Part shown: positions 11,966-30,070 of the stretch, in pieces | How the letters are laid out: every line of letters begins with the position of its first letter | Position numbering within the stretch: the stretch's first letter is position 1 | Source of the DNA: Octopus vulgaris | Lineage: Eukaryota | Direction: 5' to 3' | DNA: 64,000 nt | NCBI GenBank assembly: GCA_951406725.2 | Contig: OX597816.1 | Span: forward strand, 120,528,001-120,592,000 | Translations under genes and position numbers: made by a program | The notes under the pieces: model-generated | Told to the model about the DNA's origin: nothing | Database searches by the model: none | What the model saw: only the letters and a program-made list of their open reading frames with translations

Positions 11966-12015
11966 TTTGTCAAAATATTTCCGTCGCTAAAATCCGCGAC
12001 CTGTTCACTGACAAA
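11966..12015 (-). ncRNA. Minimal hammerhead ribozyme, G3-C8 core variant
   Basis: Reverse complement TTTGTCA-GTGAACA-g-GTCGC(8 nt)GCGAC-g-GAAA-TAT-TT-TGACAAA; 7-bp stem I, 5-bp stem II. Confidence 0.7.
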
Positions 12016-12424
12016 AATCCGTGCTGCATCTGAGAAAGTAACAGTTAGTTCGTCATATATATGTACGTATGTATGTGTGTATGTATGCATACATGTGTGT
12101 ATGTATGTACGTATGCATGTACGTACATACGCCTGTGTATGTATGTATGTATGTATGTATGTATGTATGTATGTATGTATGTATGTATGTATGTATGTAT
12201 GTATATATGTATGTGTGTGTATATGCACGCACATACACACTATAAACATAAAGCTATAAACCTGTAGCGATGGATAGATGTAGAGTGACCACTCATCACA
12301 ATAATATCAAATTTCAACTTCCCCCGGCCGAAGCCTGGAAGTGATTTACGACCCTTACTCCCAAAACTATACCCTAAAACCTATTATATATTTATCTCTA
12401 TATCACAGAACTTTTGTTTTACTA

Positions 12425-12545
12425 TTGTGCGTATGTATGTATGTATGTATGTATGTATGTATGTATGTATGTATGTATGTATGTATGTATGTATGTATGT
12501 ATGTATGTATGTATGTATGTATGTATGTATGTATGTATGTATGTA
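12425..12545. repeat. (TATG)n microsatellite
   Basis: Direct reading; a second tract lies at ~12137-12203. Confidence 0.95.
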
Positions 12546-13036
12546 CATACGTACGCATGTGCGTATGTATGTATACGCGCACGTATGCATGTGCCCATGT
12601 ATGTGTGTGCGTACATGTACGTGCGTATGTACGTGTGTAGGTATGTATGTATGTTTGTACTCATGTGCTACGTATGTATGTGAGTGTCTAGGAGAATGGG
12701 CAGACGTGTCTGTGAGAGTGTGTACATGTGTATGTGTATGTGAACGTATGTCTGTGTACTGGCATGTGTCCGTCCAAGTTGTGTACATGACTGTTACTTT
12801 GATGAAGGTTGTATACATATTCACATATATGTTTGTATAGACGCACACACATATATATATGTGTGGGTGTGTGTTTGTTCCTCTCATCACCGTCTAACTG
12901 TGAATGGATACAACGCCTAAGTGCAACTGTACGTATCAAACAACGTACGCTCATACGGTTATATATAATTGCACATACGCATTGCAACCTGCATGTAAGG
13001 ACTACAAGTAACCGAGAGAGAGAGAGAGAGGGGTGG

Positions 13037-13576
<540 letters not shown>

Positions 13577-13605
13577 ATCAAATGGATATATATATATACT
13601 GTGAA

Positions 13606-13773
13606 TGCGCATGGCTCAGTGGATAGAGCGTAGAGCTTACGATTGGGAGGTTGTAAGTTCGATTCCCGGACCGGGCTGCGTGTTGTGTTCTTGAGCAATA
13701 CACTTTATTTCACGTCACTCCAGTTCACTCAGCTGTAGAAATGAGTTGCGACATCACTGGTGCCAAGCTGTAC
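13606..13773 (+). mobile_element. SINE family 1, 3'-truncated
   Basis: TGGCTCAGTGG A box, GTTCGATTCCC B box, family 1 body. Confidence 0.85.
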
Positions 13774-13777
13774 AACA

Positions 13778-13941
13778 TGTCGTTTCAAAATTTTTTGCAG
13801 GGTGAATTATGTCATGGTGCTGTTTTTCTCACAGTCGGTGACAAACTGACCCTAGTACACTGTGTATTCGACAAAATTAAAAACAAGCAAGCGCATGCGC
13901 GAAAAAATATAAAATGGTGACAATTTACCCATCGTACCCTG
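13778..13941 (-). mobile_element. Terminal fragment of the Tc1/mariner family at 49547-50367
   Basis: Aligns with 50200-50367 and ends in GGTGACAATTTACCCATCGTACCCTG followed by TA. Confidence 0.8.
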
Positions 13942-13943
13942 TA

Positions 13944-13995
<52 letters not shown>

Positions 13996-14130
13996 CATAT
14001 ATGGGTAGAGGATGTCACCAACAGGAAATAACATAAAATACGAAAACAAATGAGTTAAATACGCAAATAACGAGAGAAAAGAAGACAAGTAATACAAAGA
14101 ATGACCATTCATAAGTTATCAGCAATCAAC

Positions 14131-14239
<109 letters not shown>

Positions 14240-14601
14240 ATGCGCTCAGTCTGCGAAAATTATTGGCTCTTATTGTTAAATACGTGAAATTCCCCCAAGG
14301 ACACATATATAGATCTTTTTTATTTGAGTCCCTGGTTGTGTGTTTATCTTCAACTCATAGTTCAGTGCCAGCCGACCTTCTAAACCAGGAAATTCTAAAC
14401 CAGGAAATTATGTATTTCCATTGGAGATCATTCAATGTTAAAAGTCGGGATTAGAACTCAGCACGCAGAAGTCATCTCTTCTGATACACTAGGAATTTCA
14501 CTAACCTACTGCTTCGGGAAGGTACTTCATTCGTTGACCCCCGAAAGAGTGAAAGACAAAGTTGACCTCGACAGGATTTAAACTTAAAATCATCACCTTT
14601 C

Positions 14602-14708
<107 letters not shown>

Positions 14709-15896
14709 AAACACACACAAACGCACACTATGAATTTAGGAATACACATATATATATATGCTTATGCCTATATATATATATATATATATAGGTAGATGTA
14801 GATAGATAGATATACCTACATACATGCGCATATATATGGGTGTTGCTATGTTTATATATGACTTTCTAGGCATAATTTTATCATTATCTAATTTCAGACA
14901 TGAAATGGTCTTATTGGCTGTCGCAATCAGCAAAAGCATGCTTTACGAATCTACAAATAGTTTCATAAGTACTACTATTTGTGTATTAATACGCTGTAAA
15001 TAACTATTTTCTGTTTGCTTGATTTTAGATATAAAGGGAAACGTTGTTTATAAATACGAAGTGAAGTGAAAGTTTGAACTAGATTCCAAAATCCGGATTA
15101 TGGACTCTGTTAAGATATTGCTTCTATTCTATGGTGTTCACAGACAGAAATAGAACATTAAACAAAAATGAAAGGCCGATGTGGAGACTAGTATCCTGAA
15201 ATTAGAATAATATCGTGTGCATTCAAATAATATGTAAATTTATGTATATTTATTCAATACAAGTTCGATAATCGTTTACATTCTGCAAACCAATGCATTA
15301 TGCGAAATGCTTGACTGATCTTTGCGTTTCTATTTTCAAAAAAAAATTATATACCCTAATACTCATGGAAATAGAATTATGAATATAGCCTATTTTGTTA
15401 TCGTGGGAACATCTTTCGTGTGCTGTTTTAGAAAATCTAACTTTCATTTATCTATCTATCTATCTATCTATCCATTATCATTCTTCAATAGAAACCATTC
15501 TACTAGTTACAAAAACCTAATCAAATGAAGCATTCCCCAAACTCAAACAAAAGACAGAAGAATCGAGGTTATTATACATGCATATCTTCTCAAAACGAGC
15601 AACATTTTAGTATATTTTTCCTTGCACACAATGAGTAGTTTCATAATGTGTTCCATCCGGAAGTAGATATTCTACACTTGTAGCAAAAACTAATAGTTTC
15701 TTAAAGATAAACCTCGGTATAAACATTTTTAGTTCTTTCGTACGTTTCCCCATTGCAGTTATTTGGAAGTCAGCATTATTTAAACATTTAAATATTACAT
15801 AGTTTTCACATAATCTGATCTGAATAATGATATGGAACACGAATGAGATAGTCTTGTAGTACTTCAAGTCTAAGTTAAAGTGGTGACCTGACGGAA

Positions 15897-16320
15897 TATT
15901 GGTTTCAAATTTCAGCACAAGCCAGTAATTTGGGAGGAGGGAATAAGTCTATTACACGACTTCAGTATTTAACTAGTACAAGATAAAAGGCAAAGTCAAC
16001 CTTGGCAAATTTTGAACTCATACTGTAATGCCGGAATAGATGCCACTAAGCATTTTGTCCTCATTGCTAACAATTCTGCCATTCTCCACCGTCCGTTCAT
16101 AAAACAATCTTTTCTACAATAGGCACAAGGTCTGAAATTTTGGCCGAGAAGGCTGTTTATCTGCATCAACCTAAATGCTCAGCTGATACTTATTTCATAG
16201 ACTTCGAAAGGATGAAAGGCCAAGTTGACCTCTGTAGAATTTAAATTCAGAATGTGAAGACGGACGAAATGCCGTTAAGCATTTCGTCTGGCGTGCTAAC
16301 GCTCCTGCTAGCTCACTGCG
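15897..16320 (-). mobile_element. Two tandem degenerate family 2 SINE units
   Basis: Repeated AAAGGC..AGT(C/T)(A/G)ACCT...TT(G/A)AA(C/T)TCA and AAGCATTT motifs. Confidence 0.7.
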
Positions 16321-16789
16321 TAAAATAATGCTGTAAAAGAGGAGGAGCATATGAAATTTATCCTTATAGTTAGTGGTTCAATATGTTAATTGTACTGACA
16401 TTATACCAGTACGATTGACATGTGAGGTATATGACCTATTGTATCTTGGAACTACTCAAGTAAATAGAAAATTGGAGGAACATAGTTTTGTAAGTTAAAG
16501 AGAATAGCAGTCAAGTCCATCAGTTAGTTTAATTAACAGTACAGAAATCTCTAGCCATAAGTATTATACCAATATTAGAAATCAATAATTTCCTAACTGC
16601 TATTGTCATTAATGAGACTTATGGTACTAAATATATTGTTCTTTATCAAGCTTTGATAGAGTTTGAAGTATTGATGAAAGATTGTGGTGGTGTCCAATAA
16701 CTTAAATAGTTTATTAATTTCTTGAGAACCGCCACGAATATGGATCGTCTATAAATGTATATATTTTTCAAAAAAATTATTATTTTTTT

Positions 16790-17140
16790 TTTGCTGGACT
16801 GTAGCCATGCTAGAATGCCGCGTGAAGGGTTTGGCCGTGCAAATCGACCTTAGAACTTACTTTTAAAGTCTGGTACATATTAACTTGATTTTTTTTACCG
16901 AATCGTTGGGTTACGGAAACGTAAATAACCATCACCGGTTGTCAAGTGTTGAGTAGAGGTGAGGGCAAATAGAAAAGCAAAATACACATATACACACATG
17001 TAAAATGTGCTTTCATATAGTTTCTGTCTACCGAATCCACTCACAAGGCATTGGTCGACCGGGGCTATCGTAGAAAGCATTGCCCAAAGTCCACGCAGTA
17101 GAAATGAACCTAAAACTATGAGACAGCTATGCCTGCGCCT
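16790..17140 (-). mobile_element. SINE family 3, degenerate
   Basis: Reverse complement of the 53155-53560 family (AATCCACTCACAAGGC, GCCATGCT). Confidence 0.75.
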
Positions 17141-17464
17141 GAGTAATTTATTTTGCTTTATTACTTTTTTTGTTCTTGCGGTGCGATATTCGGTAAAATA
17201 AGTTAGCATCAAATACTTGAAGCAATGTAATAGACTAACTCTGTACTAACGGAATTACTGGCTTTGTGCCTAAATTAGAAGCAATGATTATAATCCAGGT
17301 GAGATCAATTTTGACTTTTCTATTACCTGTCTTGCTAAAATAACTTCTTATCACGTAATCGATTATACCGTGCCACTAAAAGATGTGGTCTTCAACCTTT
17401 GCAGGTTACCCTCCCAAATCTATTGTCCTTTTTGCCGCATTACTTTTACCAGCAATACGACAAA

Positions 17465-17810
17465 AGATAGTGGATTGATAGGATCATTAGAGTATCAGGC
17501 AAAATGCTATGCAGTGTCTTTTCCGACTCTTTAAATTCCGTGTTCAAATTTTGCCAAGGTCATCTTCGCTTTTCATCCCAATGAAGTACCAATCAAGTAC
17601 TAATATCGATTTAATTACCAACAGTGATTTTTACCAAATTTTGACCTTGTGACAATGTTAGAAACATTGTCGCACGGTCACAAATTTGGAAAAAAAAATG
17701 AAGTGGATGGCAGAACTGGAAGAGCATCGAACAAAATGCAATGCTTGCGACCCTTTACACTCTGAGTTCAAATTCATCACACATCAACTTTGCTTAGTCA
17801 TCCTTCTGAC
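17465..17810 (+). mobile_element. Old family 2 SINE relics
   Basis: GTTCAAATTTTGCCAAGGTCATCTTCGCTTTTCATCC and TCTGAGTTCAAATTC...CAACTTTGC cores. Confidence 0.6.
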
Positions 17811-19959
17811 GTTGTTGTTTAATTCTAGATAGCCTCACTTATCGAGCAGGCCTATGATCAAAGGCGTTTTAGACGAGATGAAATATTTTTAATTTTATTT
17901 TTCCTTTAAGTTCACTAGATGACCGAATTTGTCCCACCTTCTTTAAGGCATTAGACTGTGATTTGTGAGAAATCCGTTTGATATTTTTATTAAATATCTA
18001 GTACTGTGGTCAATTTCATTGATTCCTCGCCGTACAAAATAACCTGTGGCCATCCTTTGCTTGTTTTAAGGAAACTTTGTTAATATGGGGGAGAAATGGT
18101 GGAATGTGAGATGTTTTTCCATTATTCTATTTCCTTTAATATCGATTGTGCCTTCCATCTCTCCAGAGTCAACAAAATAAGTGACATGGGTCAACTCAGG
18201 CCTTCAAATATAACCATATTCAGAGATGTTTATCACCAAAAACTGGTCTTAATATTTTCCTTGTACTTTAATCAACTCTTAGTTTCCTAAGTCCTTCCAC
18301 TCAATTACATGATGCGGCCTAGATTGAAAACATAATTTTCCTATGAAAAATGTAGACATTCGAAGCAGGAGGTGTCAACTGCAGTTATCAACCATAATAA
18401 CATGAGTAATAGCTAGATGTAATTTGCAATGTATTAGCTTCAGCCTGTAGTCATTGATTTCACTGAAGTGATTAATGCAGTGGTTTTATAACAAGGGAAT
18501 ATAGTTATATGAATTAAAATAGTTAAGTATACTATATTTTGTTGTAATTTGATATCTATATATATATATTCTTATCGGAGGAATGGAATTTGATTAGTTT
18601 AGACGTCTTTGATTATGAAATATCGCGTAACTGGATTTATTTGTAAATGGAATGTTATTGATTTAAATTTGTTTGTATACGGAATCAGTTTACATTAAAC
18701 GATAAGTTATTGTAATAATTGAGGATTCACTGCACAGCTCCGATAACTTTACTTTACAGAAATGAAGTCATACTTCATTTGTGATATCAGTATCTGACTA
18801 CACGCAAAGGACTTATTTATTATATTGAGTAGGTGAAAATATTACTGCAACAGCCATATGTATCTTTTCAGAGAGAATTAGTGAATTAGTTTCTGTGAAC
18901 GGAAACCAAATTGTTTATCGACTTAACAATGTACTGTTACAAACTACCACTTCAGTATATGAGATATCATTGATAAAAATCAACACATCTTGCTGTTTTA
19001 CTACAAGCTTTTAGTTTTAAGGAAACTGCTTTTCAGCAGATCACAATGTTGATTGAATGTCGTGCGGAAATTTCATTAGCAAGAGTTGTGAATAAATATT
19101 ATAATTGAATATCAAACATTTTAGAATTATTATTTTTTCTATTAAAAACTGAATGCAAAACATCAAAGTGCTGATGCTAATAATTATGGGCATGATGATA
19201 ATCTTGTTACGATTGTAATGACGATGATAGTGATGATAAGGATAATGACGATGATGACGATGATGATGATAATAATAAGGATGCGATGATGATGAAAACG
19301 ATTATGATGATCATCATTATTCTCGTCCTCCTGCTACTCTTCTCCTTTTCCTCCTCCTTGTCTACCATCTCATCCTCCTTTCTTCATTGTCATCATCATC
19401 CTCATCGCCGTCTTCAACGAAATTACTATTGTCACATCTTTACTCCTGTCTTTTGGTTTTCTTTTATCGATAAAATAAATACCAGTAATTGTTTGGAAGT
19501 AATCAAATCATTCAGCATTCCTTCTCCGAAAATATGTAGAGCTATGTGAATTAATGAAATTCCTCTTTTCTTCCTCCTCCTCCACATCATCAATTTGCTC
19601 TATGACCTCCACTACCCTCATCAAAGTGGAGCACTGAACAAACTGTCCTACACCAGGAAGTGTTTAAATACATAATTTACGTATTTGAGTCCAAATATCA
19701 CCGATGTGAACTTTGCCTTTCGTTTTACATATTGTGCGGCAATAAATAAGAATCAAGTATCATTATCGATTAAATATTATACACTCATTCAACTTATTTA
19801 AATATAAATACCTTAAAAAACAGGGCTACTTCATGAAGTACAAGGCTAACAAAATGCATTTAAAGCAATATATACAGACTAGAACGGTTTTGACTTTCAC
19901 ATATTGCCAATAGAAAAATATAATTAAATAGAAGTGGCGCTTCCATTATTTTTCCAACC

Positions 19960-26834: not shown

Positions 26835-29168
26835 TATGCGTGTGGGGGTATGCATGTGTGTGCGCGCGCGCGAAGTTCTGTGCGCATGAGTGTAAGTGTG
26901 TGCGTACGCGGCTATATGTGGCTGGGCTCTTACTATCCATTTATGTGTTCGAGTCTGAATACTGTTGTTTACAAGCTTCTCTTTGCGATCACTGGCCTGG
27001 TTAAAAAGGACTCCACTCAGCCTTAACTGGTCATTCCTTCCCGTTCTAACCCTCCCTTCTTTATCCTTTCTATTGTCTCACCAGCCTATTCATCCTCAAA
27101 TTCTCTATTTCTTTCTCTCTGATTACATCTTTCTACGTATGCGCAGCTGCCCACTTCCTTTGTTCTTTCCTATTATTCTCCTCTGTATCTAAATCCTCGT
27201 AGACAAAAGTTGATGAAGACCTTTTTTACTTTCTCTTTATCCTTGAAGAACTTTATCTGATTATCTGAAACGTCGAAAACAACTTTCCTAACGATTTACG
27301 AACTAATGGAACCCTTAAATTTTACTTATACAAAATAATATACTTGGCAGTTCTGAGATGTGGTAAAAACGGAGTTGATCTTAATTTGTATACTAACAAA
27401 TGTCATGATATGTCAGCTACCAAAATCTGAGTCAGAATTAGTATTACATTCGTATTTGAAAATTTTTAAAAATAATTTCCATCTATGTTCATAAATGATC
27501 CAGTTTATTCGATACTCCATCAGCATTTTTCGCTTCCTCACAGGATTCCAATTTACTTTCAGATTGAATAAAGTAAAGAATAACTTTGTGCATATAGGGT
27601 CAAATGGGATTCCAATTTAGCATTAAACTAACAAACAAAAAAGAAACGTCATTCTGACACGCAATCATATCATCCATCGCAAAGCTGCAATTTCTTTGAC
27701 AGCCGCTAAAATGGTCGTTCTCAAACAAGGGAGAGAATCAAATCAAAGTTGGCACTTATAAATATTCATCAACTATATAAAATATGACAACAAAAAATAC
27801 GAAAAACAAATATTTTATCTCACATGTCTTCATATTATTAACTGAAATGTTTATATCAAAATACAATACATGAGTATGTTACTGAATTCTTTATCTAATG
27901 ACCCCAGGAAGATGGGTTACAAAAGTCGATATCGCAGAACTTATAGAGATATAACTAAATACTGAAAATAATTTTGTCTGGAGATCTACCGATTTTATCA
28001 ATATATCTCAGTAACTTATCTTACAATAAAGAGTTTAAAAAAGCAATATGAATTCATATAATGATATTTCTATTAATTGTTGACTAATTTGTTTTGGTGT
28101 TTATGATTAATTTCTTATATTACTGTTAACAATTAAGTTATTATCTATTATTGTTACATGTGCATCATTCATTTACAGGAAACATTACCTCTATTTAATA
28201 ATGACATTTTCTCAGGTCAACAAGGTGTCCTGTGGCAGATGTTGCAGTTTCTCTGACCAATATATTCTCTGCTCATCTGCTGAATTTACTGAGCTCGAGA
28301 TGGTTTGATTTAAGATATTTTAAAACCATACTCTGAGAATATGTCTCTCATATCACATTGGCCATGGCATAAAAAACAATGCTATTCAATGCATAATGAC
28401 CAACACAAATTTATTAATGTTTTAGTAAAAACAAAACCTCCATAAAATGAACTAAAGGAAATAACTCAAGTGGTCTATTGTTAAGAAGTGATGTATTGAA
28501 AGACGTATGCAAAACATTCCAAATTAGTTGAAATTTTCTATATATAAAATACATTTTAGAATGATCAAAGCAGGATTCAGTAAACTATGCAATACTGATG
28601 AGATATCAATCGACTGAATCATGTCCAAATCTGTCTTTTGAAAAAAATAAATGCGATTTTCTCCTCGGTGAAATTTTGCGAAATTAATCCTTAATTTCAT
28701 GAAATTATCTCTCCCTTATTGACAGTAACCATTGGGTTTCTGTCCTCGAATGAGAGGGAATTTTCAGTTAATTAAAGTTCTTTTACGTAAGACATTCCAT
28801 TAGCTACTTTAATACTTTGGTGCTGCTTTTAAGTACAGCTGGGTGCAAATTCATTGTTGTAAGTAATAACAACACTGAAGTTTTAATGAATATTTCGCTG
28901 AGTTTCTTTGGTTCAGTTCTCCTGGCACGGAAAAGTATCTGCGGTATACCAATGCCCTGTCCATGAGGATATGTATTACTCATCCACCAAACATGACGGA
29001 AATAGTAGAGGTGCACCATTTTAGTTGATTTATTTTCTTCAATCAAGCATTAGTTTTATCTCGTCTTAGATACTTTGACTATCGCTTATCAATCCAATCA
29101 TTTACATTCTTTACATTGTTTACATTATTTACATTCGACGGATATTTGTCCTTATCTTGTTTGTTGTT

Positions 29169-29214
29169 AACACAACGTCTCGGCTGATATACCCTCCAGT
29201 CTTCTTCAGGTGTC
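29169..29214 (-). ncRNA. Hammerhead motif, left arm (GAGA instead of GAAA)
   Basis: rc: GACAC-CTGAAGA-a-GACTG(10 nt)CAGCC-GAGA-CG-TT-GTGTT. Confidence 0.65.
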
Positions 29215-29269
29215 TTGGGGAAATTTCGAACCTGAATTCTCATTCCTAAGGTATTTTTCGATGTTGTTG

Positions 29270-29356
<87 letters not shown>

Positions 29357-29570
29357 TTGTTGTTGTTGTTGTTGTTGTCAGTGTTCAGGTCACTGCTTGG
29401 AATCGAACTCGGAATCTTGAGGTTAGTAGCCCGCACTCTTAACCACTAAGCCATATGCCCGTGGGCGTAGTGGTTAAGAGCGCGGGTTACAAACCCCAAG
29501 ATTCCGAGTTCGATTCCAAGCAGTGACCTGAACAATAACAACAACAACAACAACAGCAATAATAATAATA

Positions 29571-29603
<33 letters not shown>

Positions 29604-29616
29604 ATAATGATAATAA

Positions 29617-29649
<33 letters not shown>

Positions 29650-29703
29650 CAACAACATCGAAAATTACCTTAGGAATGATAATCCAGGTTCGAAATTTCC
29701 CAA

Positions 29704-29748
29704 GACACCTGAAGAAGGCTGGAGGGTATATCAGCCGAGACGTTGTGT
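29704..29748 (+). ncRNA. Hammerhead motif, right arm (GAGA instead of GAAA)
   Basis: GACAC-CTGAAGA-a-GGCTG(10 nt)CAGCC-GAGA-CG-TT-GTGT. Confidence 0.7.
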
Positions 29749-29879
29749 AAACAACAAACAAGATGAGGACAAATATCCGTCTAGTGTAAATAATGTAAAT
29801 AATATAGATAATTCCTCATCTCTTAAATATAGAACTAAATCGAATCATTTACATTAACATGTGTCATCCTTATCGAGTC

Positions 29880-30070
29880 ATATAGACTCGGCTGGTTTCC
29901 CGGTTTCCATGGCGTATATATTCCCCACCTGTTGCAGGATTATTCATTTTTGTCAGTTGAGTGGAGTGAAACAACGTGAAATGAATTGTTTTGCTCAAGA
30001 ACATAACACGTCAACCGAACCAGGAACCGAAACTACAATTTTACGATCATGAGTGCAACACTCTGATCAC
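29880..30070 (-). mobile_element. Degenerate SINE related to family 1
   Basis: CAACGTGAAATGAATTGTTTTGCTCAAGAACATAACACG. Confidence 0.65.

Follow-up and report, generated by a model that had tools for sequence, protein, structure and literature searches.

In a 64,000-nt stretch of Octopus vulgaris DNA (assembly GCA_951406725.2, contig OX597816.1, positions 120,528,001 to 120,592,000 of the forward strand; hereafter, the window), a palindrome and its relation to Penelope-like elements (PLEs) were studied. The window contained two inverted arms, 29106-29466 on the minus strand and 29464-29837 on the plus strand, which were 91-93% complementary and whose heads met with a 3-nt overlap. The palindrome was bracketed by an 18-bp direct repeat (29091-29108 and 29838-29855) identical at 17 of 18 positions, with one mismatch. 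Reading outward, each arm consisted of a transfer RNA (tRNA)-like head, an (AAC/AAT)n spacer, a unique body with a minimal hammerhead ribozyme and 9-bp repeats. The B box GAGTTCGATTCC was found in both arms (29506 on the plus strand and 29410 on the minus strand). The left arm had an intact A box (minus strand, 29453), and the right head was clipped, lacking its first ~11 nt, including T8 of the A box. The last ~28 nt were present only in the right arm. A first-pass annotation made from the sequence alone had described head-to-head inverted arms, tRNA-like heads with A and B boxes, AAT spacers, minimal type I hammerheads, the near-perfect 18-bp repeat and the absence of the terminal ~30 bp from the left arm, and this description was confirmed. 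ARAGORN detected no tRNA gene in the window, and Rfam gave neither a tRNA nor a hammerhead match there, all 8 Rfam matches being below the gathering score. The features of the palindrome are listed below.

29091-29108, plus strand: direct repeat read as the left copy of the target-site duplication (TSD); it overlaps the short-arm end by ~3 nt
29106-29466, minus strand: left arm, read as a pseudo-long-terminal-repeat (pseudo-LTR) copy from the predicted start site to the inner (short-tail) end
29386-29466, minus strand: full tRNA-like head, A box at 29453-29443 and B box at 29410-29399; its start is the 5'-end peak of the family
29265-29385, minus strand: (AAC/AAT)n spacer of the left arm, a repeat whose length differs between copies
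29106-29243, minus strand: start of the PLE open reading frame (ORF), 46 codons open from the ATG (MRIQVRNFPKTPEEDWRVYQPRRCVNN...), by translation and comparison
29170-29213, minus strand: minimal type I hammerhead of the left arm, with A14G and one mismatch in stem II
29464-29837, plus strand: right arm, read as a pseudo-LTR copy that extends to the outer, full-tail end
29464-29530, plus strand: 5'-clipped tRNA-like head, A box at 29464-29473 without T8 and B box at 29506-29517
29531-29654, plus strand: (AAC/AAT)n spacer of the right arm, a repeat
29676-29837, plus strand: ORF start by translation, with the ATG at 29676 and the frame shifted by a C run shorter by 1 nt
29705-29748, plus strand: minimal type I hammerhead of the right arm, core at 29709-29715 and 29737-29744, with A14G
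29810-29837, plus strand: PLE "tail" of ~28 nt, not in the left arm by the survey of pairs, predicted by folding to pair with an upstream stretch
29838-29855, plus strand: direct repeat read as the right copy of the TSD

The route to an autonomous partner was found at locus L013, where the end of a PLE ORF ran straight into the head. The head directly followed the ORF end in 28 of the 30 best ORF-end matches; one of the other two kept only its first 10 nt, and one had no head. Nine of the 30 best matches to the 5' part of the ORF carried the body, hammerhead and tail directly upstream, continuous with the ORF, and six of these nine could be read in frame from the arm ATG into the ORF (MRTQVRNFPKTP..G.RVYQPK.CVN...SSLKYRTVLSNR), with scattered substitutions and breaks. 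The hammerhead and tail made up the opening ~55 codons of this ORF, and the left arm of the window copy encoded the same N-terminal peptide over 46 codons. The first-pass annotation had suggested comparing the tail with the 3' untranslated region of an autonomous PLE; instead, it proved to be the 5' end of the PLE ORF.

The ORF N-terminus matched an 847-aa relative (E 3e-20; E 0.002 for the window peptide alone). The reverse transcriptase (RT) piece matched Pfam RVT_1 at 34.8 bits (cut-off 29.6) and had 278 homologues, the Anolis protein P0065 being 42% identical to it. The C-terminal piece, from locus L075, matched the C-terminal region of P0065 (E 6e-24); a Pfam search of this piece gave no GIY-YIG match, and PF01541 was found in 5 of 120 homologues among the matches listed. 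The same repeat lay 3' and 5' of the ORF, with both in one copy at L309, and the order of the unit was head, (AAT)n, ATG, hammerhead, tail, the remaining ORF (RT and a putative GIY-YIG-type end), head. The ORF was broken in all element copies examined. The element thus combines a PLE-type RT, pseudo-LTRs, a tail confined to one end, an inverted partner that is truncated, and a minimal type I hammerhead, and it is almost certain that the window arms are pseudo-LTRs of an autonomous Poseidon-type PLE, in agreement with the earlier proposal that PLE machinery mobilized them.

Loci with Pfam GIY-YIG matches had also been considered as the partner. These belonged mainly to other PLE families, which we take to be Neptune-like by their CxxC motif; their ends were unlike those of the window element, and they were reused as controls. 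In one young PLE family (L037, L042, L289-L291 and many further matches), intact frames of 781 aa were numerous and the 3' region contained tandem repeats; this family is possibly still active. Further PLE families (L034, L058, L280, L288) carried hammerhead-like motifs with a palindromic helix III.

The genome searched comprised 2.80 Gb in 227 contigs. A 34-nt hammerhead stretch had 1,690 exact matches and its reversed control had none; therefore, the pattern occurred far beyond chance. A head 22-mer had 2,931 exact matches, and the 22-mer just upstream of the head, at the ORF end, had 781 (reversed controls 0). These counts were corrected by the exact-match rates in loci not picked on those patterns (6/71; 6/39 to 23/93; 12/34), which gave very rough totals of ~20,000 arms, 12,000-19,000 heads and 2,200 ORF ends. 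The family is not confined to the O. vulgaris genome, since contigs of sequencing runs X1, X6, X14 and X19 (four organisms), aligned to L166:900-2200, contained both repeat and ORF parts.

The organization of the insertions was studied in 147 loci: 30 that resembled the window tail, the window copy among them, 90 that matched the hammerhead pattern and 27 that matched the head pattern. The 90 hammerhead loci were drawn from 100 matches listed, all on contig 1, with two already in the set and the last eight left out; three duplicates were removed from the head-pattern loci. Inverted pairs were found at 84 of the 147 loci, and 63 had no pair within the examined flank. One full and one short tail were present in 75 of the 84 pairs (p 4e-14 compared with 50%), two short tails in 6 and two full tails in 3. 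TSDs scoring at least 9 were found in 52 of the 84 pairs and in 7 of 124 swapped controls; TSD length was variable, ~9-18 bp, and the ends of the pairs were asymmetric. Most insertions comprised a full-tail arm and an inverted short-tail arm, enclosed together by a TSD of this length. The short-tail ends clustered at reference positions 134-166.

The joints between arms varied: two full heads were present in only 6 of the 84 pairs, a full and a partial head in 9, a single full head only in 33 and no head in 19, while 6 joints contained the ORF and 11 were of other kinds. The junction overlap, taken from BLAST ends, ranged widely, from -5 to +24, over 39 resolvable pairs, without a control set. 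Because inverted pairs were so frequent, joints variable, pairs of a full and a short tail predominant and two full heads so rare, the palindrome is a by-product of insertion. The proposal that it was inserted as one unit with a fixed twin promoter does not agree with these data. Rare non-CpG variants common to both arms of a locus numbered 23 in 13 of 69 pairs, compared with 0.093 per unrelated pair, and the window copy had three. Arms differed from the column majority by ~4.4% in a sample biased to young copies, which corresponds to an age of roughly 12 million years at the substitution rate used in PMC13282606.

Several observations were made in passing. At two unlinked loci (L115 and L125), the same 13-bp duplication flanked elements of opposite orientation; both had apparently entered one particular site of a different common repeat, which hints at a target preference. 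Four unrelated copies (L003, L005, L028, L063) had the same ~540-nt sequence (starting TGCCCTGATGCAGTACCAG...) inside their (AAT)n spacers; it probably represents either a different element with AAT repeats as its target or a longer subfamily. In the flanks of L017, L030, L012 and L157, 5'-truncated arms adjoined the AAT-tailed 3' end of a sequence resembling a long interspersed nuclear element (LINE), and pairing between the AAT spacer and tails of this kind may occur when the element inserts. The right flank of the palindrome in the window (29890-30070) was another interspersed repeat, with 22 matches among the sampled loci.

The commonest hammerhead core in the family, CTGATGA...GAAACGTT, was found in 22 of 45 arms, and the core was intact in 66 of 114 unselected arms. 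Both window arms read GAGA (A14G), a change found in 1 of 114 other arms. The right-arm hammerhead folded with stems I and II, although its energy alone was not exceptional (z -1.3), and the left-arm hammerhead folded poorly (z +1.0). The tail was predicted to pair with an upstream stretch, so that the inner site would be looped out (z -1.75). The core was not significantly more conserved than the flanking columns (3.1% vs 4.1%, p 0.12), and no clear peak of 5' ends was found at the cleavage site (3 at positions 93-94 among 68 starts listed; no statistical test). Since both window arms carry A14G, the ribozyme of the RNA template of the window copy was probably dead. Hammerhead cleavage is probably not needed for insertion. 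The suggestion that the element is ribozyme-processed is not supported; 5' ends lay at the head rather than at the cleavage site. A dead template ribozyme agrees with the in vitro results for an anole element, in which insertion was independent of the hammerhead, RT started at two internal sites and both strands were extended (PMC11167929). The N-terminus of P0019, a distant relative, keeps PD.G...PKRC, the peptide encoded in frame by the hammerhead core; the ribozyme therefore leaves a protein-level signature usable for searches.

The head aligned to six of ten host tRNA sequences (z 4.7-6.4), best to Arg-TCG. Among 120 loci not picked on the head, 103 head-match starts were scored. Of these, 51 fell at positions 0-8 and 39 lay deeper inside the head, whereas 2 were located within 100 nt upstream and 11 more than 100 nt into the ORF. 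Many arms started at the head peak even where the partner arm ended far away; therefore, the small palindrome at the start was not the sole cause of the peak. This peak lay ~13 nt before the A box, and the start of a type 2 promoter of RNA polymerase III (Pol III) is expected at about that spacing.

Pol III stops at runs of at least four T residues (T4 runs). No such run was found in the sense strand of the window arms, and no conserved site of this kind was found in the whole unit, none being common to more than 4 of ~35 copies. The 2,570-nt column majority contained 0 T4 runs, compared with 4.7 predicted from base composition (P 0.009), and 30 natural copies contained 21 in 41,292 nt of sense strand (~0.5/kb). 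The controls had far more: 4.1-4.6 per kb in three other PLE families of the same genome (one span each) and 50 in 9,831 nt (5.1 per kb) in eight distant metagenome PLE relatives. The nearest T-runs in the flanks of the window copy were at 29947 and 28934. Relaxed ARAGORN searches of the control PLEs gave only noise. Elsewhere, at L247:138-2854, seven tRNA-Cys-like genes were clustered within 3 kb.

Taken together, the palindrome in the window is probably an inverted double insertion of a Poseidon-type PLE pseudo-LTR, the A/B-box head of which likely serves as a Pol III promoter. As far as sequence can indicate, it is fairly probable that the head is a promoter in use, whereas for transcription of the full ORF by Pol III the probabilities for and against appear equal. 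The same even balance applies to the idea that a protein-coding element captured a tRNA-derived promoter and purged terminators over its ~2.6-kb unit, allowing end-to-end transcription by Pol III. By internal priming, such an element could be its own short interspersed nuclear element (SINE), giving full-length copies and ~ten thousand short inverted pairs, which is judged neither more nor less probable.

Insertion could proceed as follows. The RNA would start ~13 nt before the A box and, meeting no T4 terminator, would extend across the ORF and on into either the following pseudo-LTR or the flank, up to a T-run in the flank. The PLE protein would nick both target strands, and RT would be primed internally at two sites ~30 nt apart (outer and inner tail). 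Each site would serve one strand, and both would probably lie on a single RNA. Short homology would then join the resulting cDNAs at their 3' ends, which would produce a head-to-head palindrome with a variable center. Priming at the first tail would yield short SINE-like copies such as the window copy, and priming at the second tail would yield ORF-containing copies. Double priming of one RNA fits the excess of pairs that combine a full with a short tail, as well as the variants common to both arms of a locus.

Several points weigh against this explanation. The deficit of T4 runs was not significant in a synonymous-codon shuffle (P 0.12-0.65; 0.15), because TT avoidance sits in the codon usage itself. 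Of two copies, one showed a significant preference for TTC over TTT (p 0.03) and the other did not (p 0.10), and one control PLE family likewise preferred TTC. Decay of the B-box CpG was almost symmetric genome-wide (982 vs 1,077, p 0.04), so selection on the promoter was hardly evident in source copies; an apparent protection of the B box in a small sample (C>T in 2 of 53 short and 10 of 38 ORF-linked heads, nominal p 0.003, one of 22 columns) was rejected, the genome-wide asymmetry being only 10%. The head lay upstream of the ORF in just 1 of 9 loci with a 5' pseudo-LTR (L166; L171 was a deleted case). No second Poseidon-like family was found among 30 loci, and there was accordingly no close head-less control. 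An uncapped Pol III RNA would also have to be translated. Finally, gene conversion after insertion could also give variants shared by the arms.

The null result of the codon shuffle would be expected if the same PLE and insertion route operated but the full-length element were read by RNA polymerase II (Pol II), the head yielding short Pol III RNAs or marking the Pol II start, and the lack of T-runs being a side effect of codon usage or TT avoidance. Retroelement sense strands are often A-rich, and the protein requires a translatable RNA; both points favor Pol II transcription. In addition, the internal promoter of D. virilis Penelope is LINE-like and includes a downstream promoter element (PMC2377424). 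However, the T content of the octopus element (~0.23) was similar to that of the control PLEs, yet T4 runs were ~10-fold rarer, and the 5'-end peak lay where a type 2 Pol III start would be expected. Transcription of the full-length element by Pol II is considered unlikely.

The first-pass annotation had favored a non-autonomous, Pol III-driven element mobilized by PLE machinery, which would here be an independent tRNA SINE lineage with short master copies of its own. This would explain the excess of heads over ORF ends, roughly 5-9 fold after correction, and the arm-shared private variants, including A14G in the window, which suggest already-mutated templates. Nevertheless, no diagnostic substitution distinguished the 53 short heads from the 38 ORF-linked heads, the differences being mostly C>T/G>A decay; the head is integral to the autonomous element; and internal priming accounts for short copies without a separate master. 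The short copies behave like a SINE, and of the attributes of tRNA SINEs the A/B-box head was present, but a family separate from its autonomous partner was not demonstrated. Such a lineage is quite improbable, although some secondary spread from short copies is likely and compatible with the insertion of PLE pseudo-LTRs favored here.

It is very improbable that a palindromic master was copied whole and its center was later eroded by hairpin deletions. A symmetric center recurred in some loci, and variants common to the arms of a locus would be expected from such a master, but the long or ORF-containing arm could be either of the two, many heads started at the same base with the partner arm stopping far off, and the clustering of short-tail ends is unlike a 5'-truncated end. 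A DNA-transposon miniature inverted-repeat transposable element (MITE) with long terminal inverted repeats, which the inverted arms and TSD might suggest, is refuted, as the first-pass annotation had expected, by the asymmetric ends, the variable TSD length (~9-18 bp) and the PLE ORF and hammerhead within the arms.

In the reading as a PLE pseudo-LTR with its own promoter, the palindrome is more ordinary than was initially held, and the novelty would lie in the putative tRNA-like promoter of an autonomous PLE. That this promoter belongs to a protein-coding element had gone unnoticed and is the most unusual point. To our knowledge, protein-coding retrotransposons are held to use Pol II (Pol I in the case of R2), with Pol III serving only short non-coding passengers. 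In PMC10886601, Pol II is described as needed by non-LTR elements and by the LTR partners of TRIMs (terminal-repeat retrotransposons in miniature) with Pol III promoters. If true, a PLE built as a Pol III unit breaks that rule and raises the question of cap-independent translation; it would also offer one route for a SINE-like family to arise from the end of an autonomous element. Independently of the promoter, thousands of full and short pairs with arm-shared private variants provide a genome-scale test of PLE integration by two primings on one RNA. In existing annotations, it is likely that such short copies are wrongly labeled SINEs, MITEs or miRNA hairpins. A literature search, with most subscription journals outside it, gave no description of a PLE with a tRNA-derived promoter; a repeat-library entry may exist, Repbase, Dfam, SINEBase and the Zenodo library of PMC13282606 being outside the search.

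Known PLEs resemble the octopus element in several respects. As in Penelope/Poseidon PLEs (Anolis PAc and D. virilis Penelope), the RT is followed by a C-terminal region, putatively of endonuclease type, pseudo-LTRs are present and a minimal hammerhead lies in the first ORF codons (PMC11167929, PMC8557442, PMC4209133). The tail of 30-40 nt at one end and the inverted 5'-truncated partner are also shared with these PLEs (PMC8557442), and in the anole Poseidon the ORF likewise has the hammerhead at its start and contains the tail, which is flanked by two sites of RT initiation (PMC11167929). Unlike them, the octopus element has an A/B-box head in its pseudo-LTR and no conserved T4 runs, and the mapped promoter of Penelope is LINE-like (PMC2377424). 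Naiads, a sister group, are described as being without canonical hammerheads (PMC8557442). Chlamys MRC1, which comprises non-autonomous PLEs, similarly includes short derivatives whose 3' ends are common to autonomous families, but no tRNA head is reported for it in the relevant part of PMC8557442.

Outside the PLEs, the octopus SINEs OK, OR1 and OR2 and the Ceph-SINEs, compared by description only, also have a tRNA-derived head, OR1 and OR2 being CORE SINEs (PMC4758252, PMC4824008, PMC3531059). Schistosoma Sm-alpha and Sj-alpha combine a Pol III promoter and a hammerhead in one short repeat; however, these are described as tandem, ribozyme-freed and without a link to a PLE ORF, whereas the octopus copies are inverted pairs, carry a minimal hammerhead, unlike those repeats, and are part of an autonomous element (PMC6765202). 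TRIMp3 elements (Cassandra, Helenus, Ajax) likewise have a small-RNA-derived Pol III promoter in the terminal repeat, but they are non-autonomous LTR elements of 311-1263 bp whose autonomous partners are argued to require Pol II (PMC10886601); in the octopus family, the putative promoter is located in the autonomous element itself.
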